The notes under the pieces were generated by a model. That model searched no databases. It saw only the letters and a list, made by a program, of their open reading frames with translations, and was not told the DNA's origin. 42,131 bases of DNA. It comes from a virus. The position numbers were made by a program, and so were the translations under genes. The stretch is from IMG/VR virus record IMGVR_UViG_3300002064_000001, positions 1 through 42,131 of that record; one strand, written 5' to 3'. Positions 1 to 41,719 of the stretch are shown here, in pieces (the first letter of the stretch is position 1; every line of letters begins with the position of its first letter).

Positions 1-49
1 TATGCCGGGTACCAAGGTAAGATTCTTTACTGTAGCTAGTATAGGAACG
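1..49. repeat. 49-bp end overlap, identical to 42083..42131 (circularly closed or terminally redundant contig)
   Basis: First 49 bases (tatgccgggtaccaagg...gtataggaacg) are repeated exactly as the last 49 bases. The frame of ORF 2..1051 is continuous with the ATG at 41772. Confidence 0.9.
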
Positions 50-1051
50 AACCCAAGATTCTTTCAATCAACAGGCTCATTAACTGAACCACACTATGTA
101 ACAGTAGCAAGGTCTTCAGGTATGAGGGTGAAAAGAGGATTACAAGCAACAGCTCAACATCAACTAGGTTTCGTATACTTCCAAGATAATGGTCGAGGAA
201 AGTTTGATACCTATAATGTTACAGCTCAGAAGAGTGGGAACTTCCACTACCTAAAGGAAAAGTATTCTAGCGGTAAGCTAGTTAAGTCTCATGTCGAAGT
301 GTTAGTTTTAGGGGACATCCATCATGGTGTTACTAATAAATATGCTAGACTCAAATATCTAAAACAGATAGAGACTCTTCAACCTAAGTACGTAGTTCTT
401 CATGATTTGTTTGATGGTGAATCAATCAACCATCACAACAGACATAACTTAATTGACAGAATTAGAAATGCCGGTACAGTAAAAGACTCACTAGAGAATG
501 AATTAAAGTCATTGTCAAAAGAGATTAATTACTTAGGTAAACGATTCCCGGATGTTAAGTTTATCGTAGCTGAATCTAACCATGATGCGTTCTTAAGAAC
601 GTATGTAAAAGGTGGTGACTTCCATGATGATTTTATTAATTACATTATGGGAACGAAAGTCTTACTTGCTATCTACAATGACTTGACCAAAAAAGTTTTA
701 GAGGAATCATTGAAATTTGTTGGACCAATGCCATCAAACTTCACATTCTTAAGAGAGAATGACTCATTTAAAATTAGAGGAGTACAACTTGCACAACATG
801 GACACAAAGGTTCAAACGGTTCAAGAGGTTCTGCCTTAACATTTAAAAGATTAAATCTTCAAATGATTACAGGTCATACTCATAGTCCGCAACTCTATGG
901 TAATGGAATGATTGTTGGTACAAATACCAACTTAGAACAAGGTTACACTATTGGTGGAGCTAGTAGCTGGATGCATGCTAATGGGATTCTATATCCTGAT
1001 GGTACATATTCTCTGCTAACCTTTACTGCAAAGCAACCTATTGTTAGGTAA
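2..1051 (+). CDS. Calcineurin-like metallophosphoesterase, C-terminal part. The gene starts at 41772 and crosses the circular junction (about 453 aa in total).
   Basis: Motifs LGDIHHG, HDLFDGE, ESNHD, GHKG and TGHTH match the metallophosphoesterase signature (GDxHG / GDxxD / GNHD / GHxH). The ORF is in frame with 41772..42131 through the overlap. Confidence 0.75.
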   Translation: MPGTKVRFFTVASIGTNPRFFQSTGSLTEPHYVTVARSSGMRVKRGLQATAQHQLGFVYFQDNGRGKFDTYNVTAQKSGNFHYLKEKYSSGKLVKSHVEVLVLGDIHHGVTNKYARLKYLKQIETLQPKYVVLHDLFDGESINHHNRHNLIDRIRNAGTVKDSLENELKSLSKEINYLGKRFPDVKFIVAESNHDAFLRTYVKGGDFHDDFINYIMGTKVLLAIYNDLTKKVLEESLKFVGPMPSNFTFLRENDSFKIRGVQLAQHGHKGSNGSRGSALTFKRLNLQMITGHTHSPQLYGNGMIVGTNTNLEQGYTIGGASSWMHANGILYPDGTYSLLTFTAKQPIVR

Positions 1052-1231: not shown

Positions 1232-1261
1232 CAAAGAATAAAAGCCCTACAAATGTAAGAC
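1232..1261 (-). terminator. Rho-independent terminator of the ncRNA/tRNA operon
   Basis: Minus-strand RNA GUCUUAC-AUUU-GUAGGGC (7 bp, 2 G.U) followed by UUUUAUUCUUU. The G.U pairs make it strand-specific. Confidence 0.6.
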
Positions 1262-1275
1262 CTTTATTACGGTTG

Positions 1276-1352
1276 TGGACCAGGTGAGAATCGAACTCAC
1301 GTTCATAGAGGTGCCCGTTGGGTTTTCCTCAATGGCTAACCAAATCTAGCCC
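1276..1352 (-). ncRNA. tRNA-like element with canonical acceptor stem and T-arm but a non-canonical D/anticodon region
   Basis: Minus-strand GGGCUAG...GUGAG-UUCGAUU-CUCAC-CUGGUCC-A gives a 7-bp acceptor and a 5-bp T stem with a UUCGAUU loop. The central 45 nt cannot be folded into a normal D-arm plus a 7-nt anticodon loop. The best fold is CCAUUG/CAACGG with a 9-nt loop AGGAAAACC. Confidence 0.45.
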
Positions 1353-1359
1353 TTTGTTG

Positions 1360-1443
1360 TGAAGATAGCTGGACTCGAACCAGCACGTTCGTAATGAACA
1401 GAAGGCTTTAAATCTTCCGTGTCTACCATTCCACCATATCCTC
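1360..1443 (-). tRNA. tRNA-Leu (anticodon UAA), type II with long variable arm
   Basis: Hand-folded cloverleaf. Acceptor is GAGGAUA/UAUCUUC and the D stem is GUG/CAC with a GG loop. The anticodon stem is GAAGA/CCUUC (one A.C mismatch) with loop UU-UAA-AG. The variable arm is GUUC/GAAC, the T-arm is GCUGG-UUCGAGU-CCAGC, and the discriminator is A. Confidence 0.85.
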
Positions 1444-1446
1444 ATT

Positions 1447-1660
1447 GTAATATCAGAGATGTGCCCTGGATGGATTGTCTTTCGACTATGAACTGCCGTT
1501 CTCCATCAACCCCTAGGTATGCATGATTGCATTATTTATTAATATTCAGGGAACTGGACGTTTGTTGTTAAACGAGAGCACTACTCTCCGCCCATACTAT
1601 ACCGCTAGGCATACCAGCCTTATAGGTAATTCAGTCACAGAGCACATCTCTGATATTACC
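1447..1660 (-). ncRNA. ~213-nt structured RNA closed by a perfect 18-bp helix, co-transcribed upstream of the tRNAs; class unknown
   Basis: 1447-1464 (gtaatatcagagatgtgc) is the exact reverse complement of 1642-1659. The interior holds multiple hairpins, including GAUGGA/UCCAUC (1469-1474/1502-1507), a GUC-GAAA-GAC GNRA hairpin (1477-1486), GAGAG/CUCUC and GUUU/AAAC. There is no ORF longer than 14 codons. The promoter sits 7 nt upstream of the helix. Confidence 0.6.
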
Positions 1661-1665
1661 TAAGT

Positions 1666-1674
1666 AGTATACCA
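1666..1674 (-). promoter_or_regulatory. Extended -10 promoter TGgTATACT for the ncRNA/tRNA operon
   Basis: Minus strand reads TGGTATACT-acttagg-GUAAUAUC..., so the hexamer ends 7 nt before the first base of the 18-bp helix. Confidence 0.6.
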
Positions 1675-1769
1675 CTAGATTGATATCTTGTACAACTACC
1701 TATTTATATACACAACATACTGTAGTTAATGTCAAGTATATATTAGCTAGAATATGTTACACTTGTATT

Positions 1770-1856: not shown

Positions 1857-2318
1857 ATGAAATATATTTATACAACGATTTTATTCGTGACAGTCGCCAT
1901 TTTGTATGGAGTCTATACCCACGAAGCAATTTCTCTCACCTTAGAAGAGCCTACAGAGGTTCAAAATATCGTGATTATTCACGAAAAGCCTAGTATTAAA
2001 GATTATGCTAGGTCAAAAGTAGGAGAAGAACAATGGAACAGTTTTAATAATATTATTCAGCACGAGAGTGGTTGGTGTCACACACGATGGAATGGTCAAC
2101 GAGGTTGCCCTGAAACTCCACGTGATACAAAACTATCTAGTGGTTCGTCTGCATACGGTCTCTGTCAAACAATGATGAGTCTATATGAAGAGGATTTACC
2201 AGAAGACTTTCGTACAAATCCATACAATCAAATTGATTGGTGTATCGCATATGCGTCTGAACGATATGGTTCACCAAACAATGCATGGCAGTTCTGGCAA
2301 CGGAACAGATGGTGGTAA
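1857..2318 (+). CDS. Membrane-anchored or secreted lytic transglycosylase-like (SLT/lysozyme-like) protein
   Basis: N-terminal hydrophobic helix. IIQHESGW...SSGSSAYGLCQ resembles the SLT E-S...S..GA.GLMQ signature. Confidence 0.5.
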   Translation: MKYIYTTILFVTVAILYGVYTHEAISLTLEEPTEVQNIVIIHEKPSIKDYARSKVGEEQWNSFNNIIQHESGWCHTRWNGQRGCPETPRDTKLSSGSSAYGLCQTMMSLYEEDLPEDFRTNPYNQIDWCIAYASERYGSPNNAWQFWQRNRWW

Positions 2319-3240: not shown

Positions 3241-4350
3241 TTAATAAAGCCAGTAAACATTCTGTGATTTGGTTGTATCCATATCCACGTGAATAAATGT
3301 TTTGGCAATTCCTATTCTAGTAAACCCTACTTGACGAAGTGCGTTTACTATTTTAAATCTATTAGCACTTGTTGTACATTTTAAATCTACAGCAAGACCC
3401 TTAAGGTGAGCAGAGTTTGCTACACCTCCAACAGCTTTGTTTTTAGCAGGACTTCTATAACCTGAAGTAATAATAAAAGATACACCTGCAATACCTCTAG
3501 CCTCATCTAGCTTCTGAACGAATTCAGGAACAAGGTTTATAACCTCATAAGGTTGGAAGTATTTGTATTTAGGTAACGCCTGTTTTTTTACAACAACAAT
3601 ATCTTTAACCTTAGCTTCAATATCTTCATCCATAGAACCTCCGTAGAAGTTTATTGAGCCAAGAGGGAAGTCTTCTAATACAAGCATAGCTAATCCTCTC
3701 CCCCATGAGTTCCATACATAGACATGATGTTTCCCATCAACTAATTCCATGTACGCAACCTTCATAGCATGACCTCCTGATTTAGTAGCATCAGGATAAA
3801 ACCTTCGTAACCATTTACCAAAATGCCTACCTCGTGAAGACTTAAATTTGTATACAGATATAGACACCATATCTAATTCATCTAATGCTTTCTTGATTAA
3901 GTCAAGCTTGTTACCAATAGTCATAAAAGATTTTATGTAAGTCTTATCTTCCTTGATATTAATACCTGGCATTTCCTCATAGTATTCATCAAAGTCATCC
4001 TTTGTGTCAAGTTTAATTTCTTTCTCACGAACGAGTCCGAATGTTTTAGCAAAGCGATAACCATTTAGGTGAAATAGTCCACCCTTATTCCCACCTTCAT
4101 ATATTCTATCTGTGTTTACGTAAGCGTAACCAGCATGATATTCCTTTCCTGTTGCTCCCTCAAGACCTGAAGCTATGGTGTGACCTACACAAGAAGGATG
4201 ACTACGTTGGTTCTTTTTAGTCAACTTCTTGATATCCTTATCACTCATACCCCAACGTGTCTTATTGTCGGAGTTACCTAGTTCAAGCTCTGAAAAATCT
4301 ACATTCCTTGGGTCATTTTCTAGCCCTTTTTTTAATCCTGTATTTATCAT
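3241..4350 (-). CDS. Two-domain endolysin: N-terminal papain-like (C1-type) cysteine peptidase plus C-terminal M15 zinc peptidase
   Basis: Q-x5-C (NQRSHPSC), GGHAMKV and VWNSWG match the papain Gln/Cys/His/Asn-Ser-Trp signatures. The C-terminal SGYRSPAKNKAVGGVANSAHLKGLAVDL...HVD matches Peptidase_M15. Confidence 0.7.
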   Translation of the reverse strand: MINTGLKKGLENDPRNVDFSELELGNSDNKTRWGMSDKDIKKLTKKNQRSHPSCVGHTIASGLEGATGKEYHAGYAYVNTDRIYEGGNKGGLFHLNGYRFAKTFGLVREKEIKLDTKDDFDEYYEEMPGINIKEDKTYIKSFMTIGNKLDLIKKALDELDMVSISVYKFKSSRGRHFGKWLRRFYPDATKSGGHAMKVAYMELVDGKHHVYVWNSWGRGLAMLVLEDFPLGSINFYGGSMDEDIEAKVKDIVVVKKQALPKYKYFQPYEVINLVPEFVQKLDEARGIAGVSFIITSGYRSPAKNKAVGGVANSAHLKGLAVDLKCTTSANRFKIVNALRQVGFTRIGIAKTFIHVDMDTTKSQNVYWLY

Positions 4351-4375: not shown

Positions 4376-4822
4376 CTAGCTTTTACTAGTGTCTCCTCGT
4401 TCTAAGAACGACATAAGAAGTGATTTGAATTTGTTTAATATTAGGTTCACAGCATCAATCTCCTTAATAGGTTCTCCTGTTTTAATAGTAGAGATATTAC
4501 CAATGATAGATAGTGCTTCTGATACAATCAGCATATTGATTGCCCATATTGCAAACATAGATAAGTCTAATCCAATACCTTTACCTGTCCATACAACAAC
4601 AAGCGGTACAAGTAGTACAAGGAATTTAAACAGTATTCCAAAAGATAAGGTACGTGATGTTAACTTTCTCCATCCCCCCACACGAACTGTAGCAATAAGA
4701 CCAGTGATTACATCAACAACTAAGAATGCACTTAGTATAGCAATAGATGTTTGGTCAAGCCCAGCTAGCAAGAACGGAATAAATCCAATCATTAAGTTTT
4801 TAAATCCGGCAGTTAAGTTCAT
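4376..4822 (-). CDS. Holin (phage_holin_4_1 / TcdE-like family)
   Basis: 148 aa with multiple TM helices. LVVDVITGLIATVRVGGWRKLTSRTLSFGILFK resembles the holin family 4 signature. It lies immediately upstream of the endolysin. Confidence 0.7.
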   Translation of the reverse strand: MNLTAGFKNLMIGFIPFLLAGLDQTSIAILSAFLVVDVITGLIATVRVGGWRKLTSRTLSFGILFKFLVLLVPLVVVWTGKGIGLDLSMFAIWAINMLIVSEALSIIGNISTIKTGEPIKEIDAVNLILNKFKSLLMSFLERGDTSKS

Positions 4823-32118: not shown

Positions 32119-33024
32119 ATGTCTAAACTACTAATGCTATCAGGACTTCCAGCGTCAGGTAAATCCACATATGCAGAAGACTTGGTAAAGAACTCAGGAG
32201 GAGGATGGGTCAGAGTTAATAAAGACCTAATCAGAACAATGCTACATGCTGATAAGTTTACTTATGCAAATGAGAAGGTTACATTCGGGGCGGAACAGGA
32301 CCTTGCGGAGTACTTACTTGCTATAGGTAAAAACGTAATAGTTGATGATACAAATCTTGGTCAAAGACATCACGATACTTGGAAAGGTTTAGTTGATTCA
32401 ATGAATCAAGTTCTTGAACCTGATGAAAAACCTATTACATTTTCAAAACGAAGATTCAAAGTATCATTTAAGGAATGTCTTGAGCGTAACTGGGCTCGTG
32501 GATTAAAAGTGCCTCAGTCAGCTATTCACCGAATGGCGACTCAATACAAAATGATTGACGGACACTGGAAACCAATTATTATTTGTGACCTTGATGGTAC
32601 TATTGCAGATTTACAACACAGATTACACCACATCCAAAAAGAAAACGCAACAGAAGAAGATTATAGAAATTTCTATTCATCTGAATCTATTGCTAAAGAT
32701 GGACCTATCCAAGAAGTAATTGATATGGTTCAAAAAGAGGAAGAGGCAGGTAAAACTATTATCTTTGTATCAGGTCGCTCAGATGAGTCACGACAAGCTA
32801 CTGAAGACTGGTTATACAAACACATTAACTTTGGTTACTCAGCATTGTTAATGCGTCAAGCAGGAGATAAACGTCCTGACACTGAGGTCAAGAAAGACTT
32901 CTTATTACAAGTACTTAAAGACTACGATATCGAAAAGGTATATGATGACCGACCATCTGTTATCCGAATGTGGAGAGAGAATGGATTGGAAGTTATTGAC
33001 TGTGGAGATGGAGTAGAATTCTAA
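32119..33024 (+). CDS. pnk: Polynucleotide 5'-kinase / 3'-phosphatase (T4 Pnk-like)
   Basis: N-terminal P-loop LSGLPASGKST with RVNKD, plus a C-terminal HAD-type DxDGT motif (ICDLDGTIAD) and FVSGR...DDR. Confidence 0.75.
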   Translation: MSKLLMLSGLPASGKSTYAEDLVKNSGGGWVRVNKDLIRTMLHADKFTYANEKVTFGAEQDLAEYLLAIGKNVIVDDTNLGQRHHDTWKGLVDSMNQVLEPDEKPITFSKRRFKVSFKECLERNWARGLKVPQSAIHRMATQYKMIDGHWKPIIICDLDGTIADLQHRLHHIQKENATEEDYRNFYSSESIAKDGPIQEVIDMVQKEEEAGKTIIFVSGRSDESRQATEDWLYKHINFGYSALLMRQAGDKRPDTEVKKDFLLQVLKDYDIEKVYDDRPSVIRMWRENGLEVIDCGDGVEF

Positions 33025-40228: not shown

Positions 40229-41719
40229 ATGGATACTAAGTTAAAGAAAATAATTAAAAAAGGAGATGAAGCAAGAGCTTCATTAATTCGTGGGATTGAT
40301 GCTGTAGCAGATGTTGTTGAACCAACACTGGGACCAGGAGGACAGAACGTAGTAGTAGAACAAACCTTCTACAAAGCTATCGTTACTAACGATGGTATTC
40401 GTGTAGCCAAGCAAGCACTTAACGATGAATCTCTTAATGAGGTTGAACGTATTGGTGCACAGCTTATGGTTGACACTGTATCAGAGGAGGATAAGGATGC
40501 CGGAGATGGTACAACTACCACTACTTGTTTAACAAGACACCTTGCTCACAAGGCTCTTAAGATTCAAAATGATGGTGAGCTACCAATGAAACTTAAACGA
40601 CGTATAGAACAGGAGAAGGAAGAAGTTGTTGCTCTTATTAAAGAGAAAGCAAGTATGGACTTCTCTCTTGTTGATGTCGCAAACGTATCAATGGAGAATG
40701 AACAACACGCTAAAATCATTGCTGATATTTACACCAAGTATGGCTCTGATGTTGACATTAAGATTGCTTTCAATAAGGAATCAAACACTGTAGAAGTAGA
40801 AGAGACTGAAGGTTATACAACCCTAGGTGGATATGCTTCTCAGTATCTAGCAAGAGATAAATCTAAAATGGAATCAGTTATTAAGGAACCTATTGTATAT
40901 GTGTTCCAGGAAGTAATTGATGACGTTGATAAATTTATAGAGATACTTAAAGTTATTGACGCTGAGTATCAAGACCAACCTATTGTAATGTTTGCTGACG
41001 GATTCTCAGAAGAGATAATGAAAGCATCATTGGCATTACTTAATAAGTTTAGTAAAGATATTCACCTTGCTAAACGTTCACAATATAAACGAGTTGAAAC
41101 AGGTGAAGAGATTTGTGTATATACAGGAGCAACACCTACTTACATTGACAACTTCGATGTATCATTAGGTAGTAAACCAGTAGAACAAATTACTCTCCGT
41201 GCAACGAAGATTATTATTGAGAACAAACGTAGAGAAAAAGAAATTGAAGCATTCATTAATGAGATTGAAGATAACCAGAGTAGAGTAAATCGTTTACGTC
41301 AAGCTCTTGTTACTATTAAAGTTGGTTCACAAACTTATTCAGATACGAATTACTTACGACACAAGTATGAGGATGCTGTCAATGCAGTAGCCGGTGCACT
41401 TGAGGAAGGGGTCGTAGAAGGTGGAGGTAAATGCTTAGCTAAGATTGAAGCTCAGCTTGGACCTAACTATATTCTCTGGGGAATATTATCTAAACCTTAC
41501 AAGATTATTAAAGCTAATATGGGACTTACTGACGAGGACGAGCTAGACACTACAGGTGTTATAGACTCCGCTAAGACAGTACGTTCTGCCATAGAGCACG
41601 CATGTACCCTTGCTGGACTACTTGTTACTACGTCTACAGTTATTGCAACTAAGACAGGACAGCCTGAGTATAACGATGAGTCTGCTATGGATACCTCAGA
41701 ATTGCCGATTGCTGGCTAG
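40229..41719 (+). CDS. groEL: GroEL-family (Cpn60) chaperonin, short form (496 aa)
   Basis: GDEARASLIRGIDAVADVVEPTLGPGGQNVV, GAQLMVDTV..DAGDGTTTTT, YEDAVNAVAGALEEGVVEGGGKCL and GVIDSAKTVRSAIEHACTLAGLLVTT align with conserved GroEL equatorial-domain blocks. Confidence 0.9.
   Translation: MDTKLKKIIKKGDEARASLIRGIDAVADVVEPTLGPGGQNVVVEQTFYKAIVTNDGIRVAKQALNDESLNEVERIGAQLMVDTVSEEDKDAGDGTTTTTCLTRHLAHKALKIQNDGELPMKLKRRIEQEKEEVVALIKEKASMDFSLVDVANVSMENEQHAKIIADIYTKYGSDVDIKIAFNKESNTVEVEETEGYTTLGGYASQYLARDKSKMESVIKEPIVYVFQEVIDDVDKFIEILKVIDAEYQDQPIVMFADGFSEEIMKASLALLNKFSKDIHLAKRSQYKRVETGEEICVYTGATPTYIDNFDVSLGSKPVEQITLRATKIIIENKRREKEIEAFINEIEDNQSRVNRLRQALVTIKVGSQTYSDTNYLRHKYEDAVNAVAGALEEGVVEGGGKCLAKIEAQLGPNYILWGILSKPYKIIKANMGLTDEDELDTTGVIDSAKTVRSAIEHACTLAGLLVTTSTVIATKTGQPEYNDESAMDTSELPIAG

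Follow-up and report, generated by a model that had tools for sequence, protein, structure and literature searches.

An RNA operon on the minus strand of a 42-kb phage genome

We analyzed an RNA-only operon in the phage genome deposited as IMG/VR virus record IMGVR_UViG_3300002064_000001. All 42,131 nucleotides of this record were analyzed and are referred to as the window, whose numbering is used throughout. The operon occupies the interval between an A1-like phosphoesterase gene (2-1051, plus strand) and a transglycosylase gene (1857-2318, plus strand), runs on the minus strand, and contains no conserved open reading frame (ORF). Its elements follow one another on that strand in the order promoter-like site, 213-nt RNA, tRNA-Leu(UAA), tRNA-like element and intrinsic terminator. 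Only 3 nt lie between the helix that closes the 213-nt RNA and tRNA-Leu, and 7 nt between tRNA-Leu and the tRNA-like element. A preliminary description of this DNA had proposed a self-contained, strand-specific RNA operon here; scans and folds confirmed the layout, including the tRNA-Leu (found by ARAGORN and Rfam), both spacers and a terminator that functions on the minus strand only, and the arrangement recurs in a related phage contig, L001. The features of the operon are as follows.

1707..1735, minus strand: further promoter-like site, upstream of the first, with TTGACA (1735-1730) and, after 17 nt, TGTATA; read by eye
1666..1694, minus strand: sigma-70-type promoter-like site, -35 TGTACA (1694-1689), 17-nt spacer, TG-extended -10 TATACT (1671-1666)
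1447..1659, minus strand: 213-nt structured RNA, a five-way junction with four arms, closed by the 22-bp helix P1
1359..1443, minus strand: tRNA-Leu with anticodon UAA and a long variable arm (ARAGORN; Rfam tRNA, 49 bits)
1273..1352, minus strand: tmRNA tRNA-like domain (TLD) only, 80 nt, no tag reading frame (Rfam tmRNA model and fold)
1237..1268, minus strand: intrinsic terminator, 14-bp G.U-containing hairpin and U-rich tract, on this strand only

The site at 1666..1694 was the sole promoter-like match in a promoter scan of positions 1000-1900. The closing helix of the 213-nt RNA begins at the seventh nucleotide after its -10 hexamer, a placement already given in the preliminary description and on which scan and sequence agree; the predicted start of transcription falls at or beside the first base of the helix. 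We infer that this site acts as the promoter of the operon. At the other end, the terminator hairpin has a predicted free energy of -13.9 kcal/mol (z = -5.8). The site at 1707..1735 was not reported by the promoter scan of 1000-1900. A "cTTGACAt" box with a T/A-rich hexamer 17 nt downstream also precedes the operons of L001 and of a more distant relative, L031, and judged from its sequence the 1707..1735 site may be described as promoter-like.

The preliminary description had stated that the interval holds no ORF longer than 14 codons. This was incorrect, as longer mechanical ORFs exist, for example a 46-amino-acid ATG ORF at 1523-1663 on the plus strand, antisense to the 213-nt RNA. That ORF was rejected as a gene: it is broken up in the L001 homologue and is not conserved.

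The 213-nt RNA is a conserved five-way junction

The 213-nt RNA is closed by P1, in which 1659-1642 pairs with 1464-1447 over 18 perfect base pairs. This helix, noted in the preliminary description, was recovered both by reading and by a repeat search, and it runs a further four pairs inward, one of them G.U, to reach 22 bp (1659-1638 with 1468-1447). By our estimate, 42 kb of sequence should contain about 1.5e-4 perfect 18-bp inverted repeats within 250 nt by chance. The predicted fold of the whole RNA has a free energy of -80.2 kcal/mol and a z score of -6.7 against dinucleotide shuffles. Many of its pairs are G.U and become A.C mismatches on the opposite strand, so that the fold is specific to the minus strand. 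Four arms extend from the junction.

Arm A, ~1635-1596, minus strand
Arm B, GGGCG...CGUCC, with the hairpins GAGAG-UAGUG-CUCUC and GUU-UAAC-AAC
Arm C, UCCCUG...UAGGGG
Arm D, GAUGGA...UCCAUC, with GGCA and GAAA hairpins

Contig L001 was recovered through homologues of the A1-like protein, and its own A1-like protein is 89% identical to that of the window. It carries a 210-nt homologue of the RNA (L001:4795-5004, minus strand), 76% identical to the window RNA over 186 nt. The homologue heads an operon of six tRNAs, standing 4 nt upstream of the first, and the operon ends in a TLD and a terminator. When the two RNAs were folded together with RNAalifold, all 67 pairs of the consensus were standard pairs in both; in 14 of them both partners had changed and in nine only one had, and slid controls for the same structure gave only 34-42% pairing. 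Two features of this comparison temper it: the structure was predicted from the same pair of sequences on which covariation was scored, and the comparison is a single one, because only two distinct RNA sequences are known. The outer closing helix largely differs in sequence between window and L001 and still pairs, over 22-23 bp with one mismatch in L001. Arm B with its small UAAC hairpin also shows compensatory changes, as do arm D and the GGCA hairpin. The interior is the most conserved part of the RNA and contains long invariant blocks. The covariation shows that the 213-nt RNA is a real, conserved structure; a homologue with compensatory changes, which the preliminary description had proposed to look for, was thus found in L001, with 14 double changes.

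The coordinates given in the preliminary description hold, as do most of its hand-drawn helices. GAUGGA/UCCAUC, GUC-GAAA-GAC, GAGAG/CUCUC, GUU/AAC and CCCUG/UAGGG are kept in L001, four of the five with compensatory or one-sided changes, whereas GCA-AUCA-UGC is specific to the window (L001 has a longer hairpin in its place) and CUAUA/UAUAG lies outside the consensus fold.

The RNA is rare. Two other public datasets contain the window RNA in identical form, and a further JGI contig, L015, with a near-identical copy of the L001 RNA, came from a pattern scan of JGI metagenomes that otherwise returned one chance match only. Exact and degenerate DNA pattern scans of IMG/VR gave no genuine homologue, a DNA pattern scan of GTDB genomes gave none, and blastn with the region gave matches to the tRNA-Leu of crAss-like phages and to nothing else. 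Many related phage contigs were found through the A1-like protein and the transglycosylase; among them the RNA is present only in L001, L015 and the two identical copies of the window.

We also noted a perfect 10-nt complementarity between a conserved block of the RNA, ACCUAGGGGU (1509-1518), and positions 1149-1158 beyond the terminator. It is probably not meaningful, because about 0.3 such matches are expected by chance in the region.

Relationship of the 213-nt RNA to manA

The manA motif was described as a riboswitch candidate of 5' untranslated regions (UTRs) from marine metagenomes and T4-like cyanophages (Weinberg et al. 2010, PMC2864571). In vitro, manA RNAs are reported, from cryo-EM of other members, to self-assemble through kissing loops into decamers, octamers and a 60-mer icosahedral cage, the assembly contacts being the loop pairs L5-L7' and L8-L9' (July 2026 preprint, bioRxiv 10.64898/2026.07.01.735769). 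At gathering thresholds, an Rfam scan of the operon region returned tRNA only and no family for the 213-nt RNA. At permissive thresholds, manA (RF01745) was the sole Rfam match on the RNA strand; it was obtained for both copies and aligned over the whole model, with 20.0 bits for the window copy (E = 0.0023 in the targeted region) and 16.5 bits for the L001 copy (E = 0.024). In a scan of the whole window, manA was the best match that did not overlap a tRNA or the tmRNA-like element (E = 0.45). The other families matched in the region were rejected, consisting of chance-level microRNA, snoRNA and sRNA matches and an antisense-tRNA match to Plastid-ycf2. Group I intron, RNase P RNA, Y RNA, retron RNA and hammerhead were considered by eye and had no Rfam support.

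We then used a covariance model built from 10 cyanophage manA RNAs with a curated structure (model R3), run unfiltered on both strands of 67 kb (135 kb searched). Top rank went to the window copy (16.2 bits, E = 0.0024); the L001 copy followed (10.8 bits, E = 0.09), ahead of a background whose best match reached 7.1 bits. In these alignments, which are fitted to the model, 39 of the 42 manA pairs form in the window copy and 37 in the L001 copy, compared with 8-19 for slid partners.

The helices derived from covariation, independently of the manA models, map one-to-one to manA P1, the base of P2 (2 bp), P4, P5, P8 (outer and inner) and P9, and both model alignments agree on a five-way junction closed by P1 with the arms in the order P2, P4 (multi-hairpin), P8 and P9. 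The two kinds of RNA are alike in their junction lengths (about 2, 2, 3-4, 1-2 and 0 nt), in a multi-hairpin second arm that starts with a GURGUG loop, and in the AAUCC-N-NCC that directly precedes the 3' strand of P1; both are phage-borne and about 190-215 nt long. A further likeness is GUGACUGAAU, which runs from the last part of P1 across J1/2 into P2: the window copy matches at 10 of 10 positions, at the manA location directly after P1. L001 has the variant GUGGCAGAAU; its A-to-G change is matched by a compensating change in the pairing partner, and its U-to-A change also occurs in the manA RNA of Synechococcus phage S-CREM1.

A series of results weighs against kinship with manA. Neither copy reaches the manA gathering score of 55.2 bits. 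A manA model with a poorer, automatically derived structure (R2) misses the 213-nt RNA; because R2 misses it and R3, with the curated structure, finds it, the signal is one of structure and not of sequence. The best match on the RNA with nhmmer and a profile of nine cyanophage manA sequences had E = 14, and a test for colinear conserved blocks gave z = 1.75 for the window and -0.26 for L001. The reciprocal search also failed, in that a model of the 213-nt RNA (R1) found no canonical manA RNA. Structurally, the 213-nt RNA has neither the 5' hairpin P0 nor hairpin P7, its P2 inner hairpin differs, and two hairpins (GGCA and GAAA) in a three-way junction stand in place of the L9 loop. The contacts L5-L7' and L8-L9' are not evident in it, because P7 is absent and L9 is replaced; its L5 reads GUAGUG, where the manA P5 loop is GUGGUG, complementary to the P7 loop ACCA. 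Finally, most relatives of the window phage lack the RNA, and no tRNA lies near eight of the ten manA loci examined in cyanophages. Two further differences are a P1 longer by 17-18 bp than that of manA and the host genome, a ~42-kb non-cyanophage rather than a T4-like cyanophage.

These results could also be read as showing a new orphan family, trans-acting and unrelated to manA, which came to share layout and strings with it by convergence or chance. Such a reading accommodates the sub-threshold scores, the lack of a sequence-only signal, the failed reciprocal search, the loss of several manA hairpins and both kissing-loop pairs, and the rarity of an RNA for which exact-pattern scans of IMG/VR, JGI and GTDB gave one near-duplicate only. 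It does not predict that two independent manA covariance models should rank exactly these two RNAs at the top over 135 kb, that GUGACUGAAU should stand at its manA structural position with the L001 differences either compensated or shared with S-CREM1, or that the RNA should abut a tRNA as true manA RNAs do. We regard an orphan family as the less likely reading and consider the 213-nt RNA to be probably a true manA relative. We do not assign it to the family as a member: its scores stay below the gathering threshold and the loop-loop contacts are not evident. The preliminary description had seen the RNA as an apparently distinct orphan. This is probably not so, given a weak but reproducible full-length match to manA, although no match attains a gathering score; in the formal sense no significant Rfam hit was obtained, because the manA score lies below that threshold.

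manA RNAs and phage tRNA genes

Examination of cyanophage genomes showed that manA RNAs can directly adjoin tRNA genes. S-CREM1 has a bona fide manA RNA (96.6 bits) directly between tRNA-Leu and tRNA-Asn (locus L016:1633-2002), and the manA RNA of S-SSM7 (123.6 bits) ends at the first base of tRNA-Gly (locus L029:1064-1334). In both phages the gap between manA RNA and tRNA is zero or one nucleotide, on the same strand, so that direct contact with the 5' end of a tRNA gene is shared with the 213-nt RNA. The manA literature examined contains no comment on this adjacency. From the arrangement in S-SSM7 and S-CREM1, RNase P would seem to be the enzyme that sets the 3' end of manA RNAs.

Small annotated "hypothetical protein" coding sequences overlie high-scoring manA RNAs in the cyanophages P-SSM4 (L018:1585-1758), P-HM1 (L019:1506-1682), S-SSM5 (L024:605-811) and S-SSM7 (L029:1142-1273, running into tRNA-Gly). 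These coding sequences are probably mis-annotations.

The T4 stable RNAs C and D are small RNAs of unknown function that are co-transcribed with phage tRNAs and released by tRNA-processing enzymes; by description only, they resemble the 213-nt RNA as small RNAs in a phage tRNA cluster. The preliminary description had drawn an analogy with GOLLD and ROOL, which is apt insofar as these are phage RNAs near tRNA genes. ROOL and GOLLD are RNAs of phages and prophages that are encoded near tRNA islands and form cages of RNA only (PMC12286853). Like the 213-nt RNA, they are phage-encoded, highly structured, non-coding, located beside or among tRNA genes and without a known protein partner; unlike it, they are much larger (~500-800 nt or more). 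Their Rfam models gave no match at E <= 10 in the region or E <= 5 in the whole window. The resemblance is therefore one of context, and possibly of behavior, and not of family membership.

The classification of manA as a 5' UTR riboswitch candidate (PMC2864571) raises the question of whether the 213-nt RNA is a ligand-sensing leader that controls the downstream tRNAs, and its position between promoter and downstream genes would suit that role. However, there is no expression platform: the 22-23-bp closing helix leaves no room for an alternative fold and is not followed by a terminator or anti-terminator, the tRNA begins 3-4 nt later, and the downstream genes are untranslated. The lack of an expression platform together with the extremely stable closing helix makes a riboswitch highly improbable. 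The RNA is, in our reading, a probable distant manA relative that heads a tRNA operon in an unrelated small phage and has no expression platform. No function for manA RNAs has become known since 2010. This locus and the manA-tRNA adjacency in two cyanophages argue that manA-class RNAs are stable, processed, trans-acting RNAs of tRNA islands, a niche that is also that of ROOL and GOLLD.

A tag-less tmRNA domain in the operon

The tRNA-Leu(UAA) gene does not encode CCA and has CAA after the discriminator A. The tRNA-like element that follows it proves to be a tmRNA tRNA-like domain that lacks the mRNA-like part. Against the Rfam tmRNA model (RF00023) it scores 38.7 bits, aligning to the two ends of the model with 8 nt in place of about 300 positions between them; the L001 counterpart, likewise the last RNA before the terminator, scores 53.1 bits, and the gathering score of 47 bits lies between the two. 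ARAGORN called no tmRNA at either TLD. The acceptor stem of the window TLD has 7 bp (GGGCUAG/CUGGUCC) with G3:U70, and that of L001 is GGGGAUG/CAUCUCC, also with G3:U70. The window element further has a T arm (GUGAG-UUCGAUU-CUCAC), a D-loop analogue and the 3' end ACAA, and a CCC-AAC-GGG hairpin caps its short P2-like helix. Compensatory differences between the two elements were found in the acceptor stem, the T arm and the P2-like helix. In keeping with the loss of the mRNA-like domain, there is no resume codon, tag frame or pseudoknot. The preliminary description had been unable to match the 213-nt RNA to tmRNA, which is borne out; the tmRNA domain is the neighboring element, to which it had given no identity.

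Two other origins for this element were considered and rejected. In a two-piece or permuted tmRNA the 213-nt RNA would be the coding piece; the TLD is closed by its own helix and there is no conserved tag frame. An attP fragment of a tmRNA gene is contradicted by the presence and covariation of both acceptor strands.

A TLD-only tmRNA without a coding sequence is known from mycobacteriophage DS6A, and the tmRNA database lists "standard, no CDS" forms; a similar TLD-only molecule inhibits tmRNA in Escherichia coli, perhaps by titrating SmpB (PMC4131195, PMC11915505). The DS6A molecule, like the window TLD, has no resume codon, tag frame or pseudoknots. It differs in belonging to an unrelated phage lineage, whereas the element described here sits within a tRNA operon and is seen across three related operons, with two copies in L031 by sequence reading; in this comparison the window TLD lacks an encoded CCA and lies below the Rfam gathering score. 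The operons described here constitute a second, independent phage lineage with tag-less tmRNA domains, in which the domain is a recurring component, and on sequence grounds this would support the idea that phages interfere with ribosome rescue.

Proposed maturation and roles of the three RNAs

We consider the locus, taken as a whole, to be best explained, with moderate confidence, as a stable-RNA-only phage operon that makes a manA-type RNA, tRNA-Leu and a tag-less TLD. Transcription would proceed from the extended -10 promoter, start near 1659 and end at the 1268-1237 terminator. Three RNAs would be released from the transcript by tRNA-processing enzymes of the host. Cleavage by RNase P is expected at the 5' ends of tRNA-Leu and the TLD, the cut at tRNA-Leu also setting the 3' end of the 213-nt RNA, and both tRNA-type products would undergo 3' trimming and CCA addition, the latter because neither gene encodes CCA. 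Such processing fits the 3-nt and 7-nt spacers and the cyanophage manA RNAs that abut tRNA 5' ends.

The first product (1659-1447) would be the five-way-junction RNA, a manA-type core mounted on an extra closing helix of 17-18 bp that probably either protects the RNA ends or serves as an RNase III site. By analogy with ROOL and GOLLD, it may be a trans-acting structural RNA that associates with itself and is produced alongside phage tRNAs. The second, tRNA-Leu(UAA), would supply decoding of UUA. The third, the TLD, would be predicted to bind SmpB and, given G3:U70, might be alanylated; by analogy with the DS6A form and with engineered TLD-only RNAs, it could damp or redirect host trans-translation through titration of SmpB. 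The preliminary description had speculated on a link with the phage Pnkp in a counter-defense or translation-tuning module; neither an RNA ligase nor SmpB was found among the window ORFs scanned. Whatever its products do, the locus is a minimal three-RNA operon in which to ask what RNAs of this class are for.

A more far-reaching proposal is that the manA-like RNA assembles with itself into a shell or scaffold whose function is tied to its co-produced RNAs, and that the cage-forming GOLLD, ROOL and manA-class RNAs form one functional guild of phage tRNA islands. The shell would hold, protect or deliver tRNA-Leu and the putatively alanine-accepting mini-tmRNA during takeover of translation or evasion of tRNA-targeting defenses. 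This proposal is speculative, and we think it unlikely.

Operon heads and tRNA content among relatives

The more distant relative L031, whose A1-like protein is 59% identical to that of the window, has a seven-tRNA operon at the same genomic position. Its operon is headed by a hairpin of ~29 bp (L031:4080-4170, minus strand; -47 kcal/mol, z = -6.5) with a small loop and no manA-like core, and the long stem may be a module of its own. These data bear on the possibility that the 213-nt RNA is mainly a cis-acting 5' module, in which the long helix, as an RNase III site or exonuclease block, sets the 5' end and stability of the tRNA precursor and the interior is dispensable cargo. All three related operons do start with a long helix, in L031 one with little else, and the outer 17-18 bp of the window helix lie outside the manA-type core. 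The interior, however, is the most conserved part of the RNA, and compensatory changes in four inner helices are not expected of a dispensable insert. Moreover, with the predicted start at the helix itself, there is no leader for RNase III to remove. We consider a mainly cis-acting role unlikely; for the helix it is compatible with a manA-type RNA operon, and for the core it is not.

From sequence reading and one fold, the L031 tRNA operon appears to contain two TLD-like elements, at 2846-2925 and ~2560-2631 on the minus strand. G3:U70 is present in the inner element; the terminal element has the T arm and 3' strand of the window TLD, but with A3:U70 and a U2:C71 mismatch.

The tRNA content of the operons varies greatly, from one in the window to six in L001 and seven in L031, and ORFs for HNH-type endonucleases lie inside the operons of both relatives (L001:4156-4347 and L031:3732-4082, both minus strand). 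Their placement suggests that homing endonucleases shuffle these tRNA operons. Sequences that resemble tRNAs and have good T arms, but were not called by ARAGORN, are present at L031 ~3590-3662 and L001 ~4605-4660 (both minus strand). The one in L031 has an anticodon-like loop reading CUGAUAC, and these sequences may be atypical or degenerate tRNAs.

Genome context and flanking repeats

A megablast search with 20 kb of the window found no nucleotide-level relative of the phage among deposited phage genomes, and a GTDB protein scan for homologues of the neighboring proteins returned one distant Microvirga match. Proteins encoded in the window include the A1-like protein, GroEL, Pnkp (32119-33024), a capsid protein and terminase. 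The window is a circularly permuted whole genome in which the A1-like gene (1-1051) is cut at base 1: this gene directly follows the GroEL gene in L001 and in another relative, L025, and in the window GroEL (40229-41719) stands last. Another assembly of the same phage is 42,201 bp long.

Just downstream of the operon terminator, positions 1175-1235 contain two 28-nt direct repeats that are 89% identical. Each holds a TGACA-N-TGTCA-type palindrome and a TTGACA box, and L001 has no equivalent. A possible second hairpin with a U-tract follows on the minus strand at about 1133-1170. The repeat region could be an operator, a promoter or the source of a tiny transcript. Between the terminator of the A1-like gene and the 28-nt repeats, at 1108-1141, lies a perfect 13-nt direct repeat, TAAGGGAATATTA, in two copies 21 nt apart. 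On the other side of the operon, the motif ATGATACGAT occurs twice at 1824-1855, in the divergent promoter region beside the transglycosylase gene, and in L001 it forms a perfect 23-nt palindrome, AATCGTATCATTATGATACGATT, inside the tRNA operon (L001:4687-4709). The ATGATACGAT/AATCGTATCATTATGATACGATT motif may be a regulator binding site.

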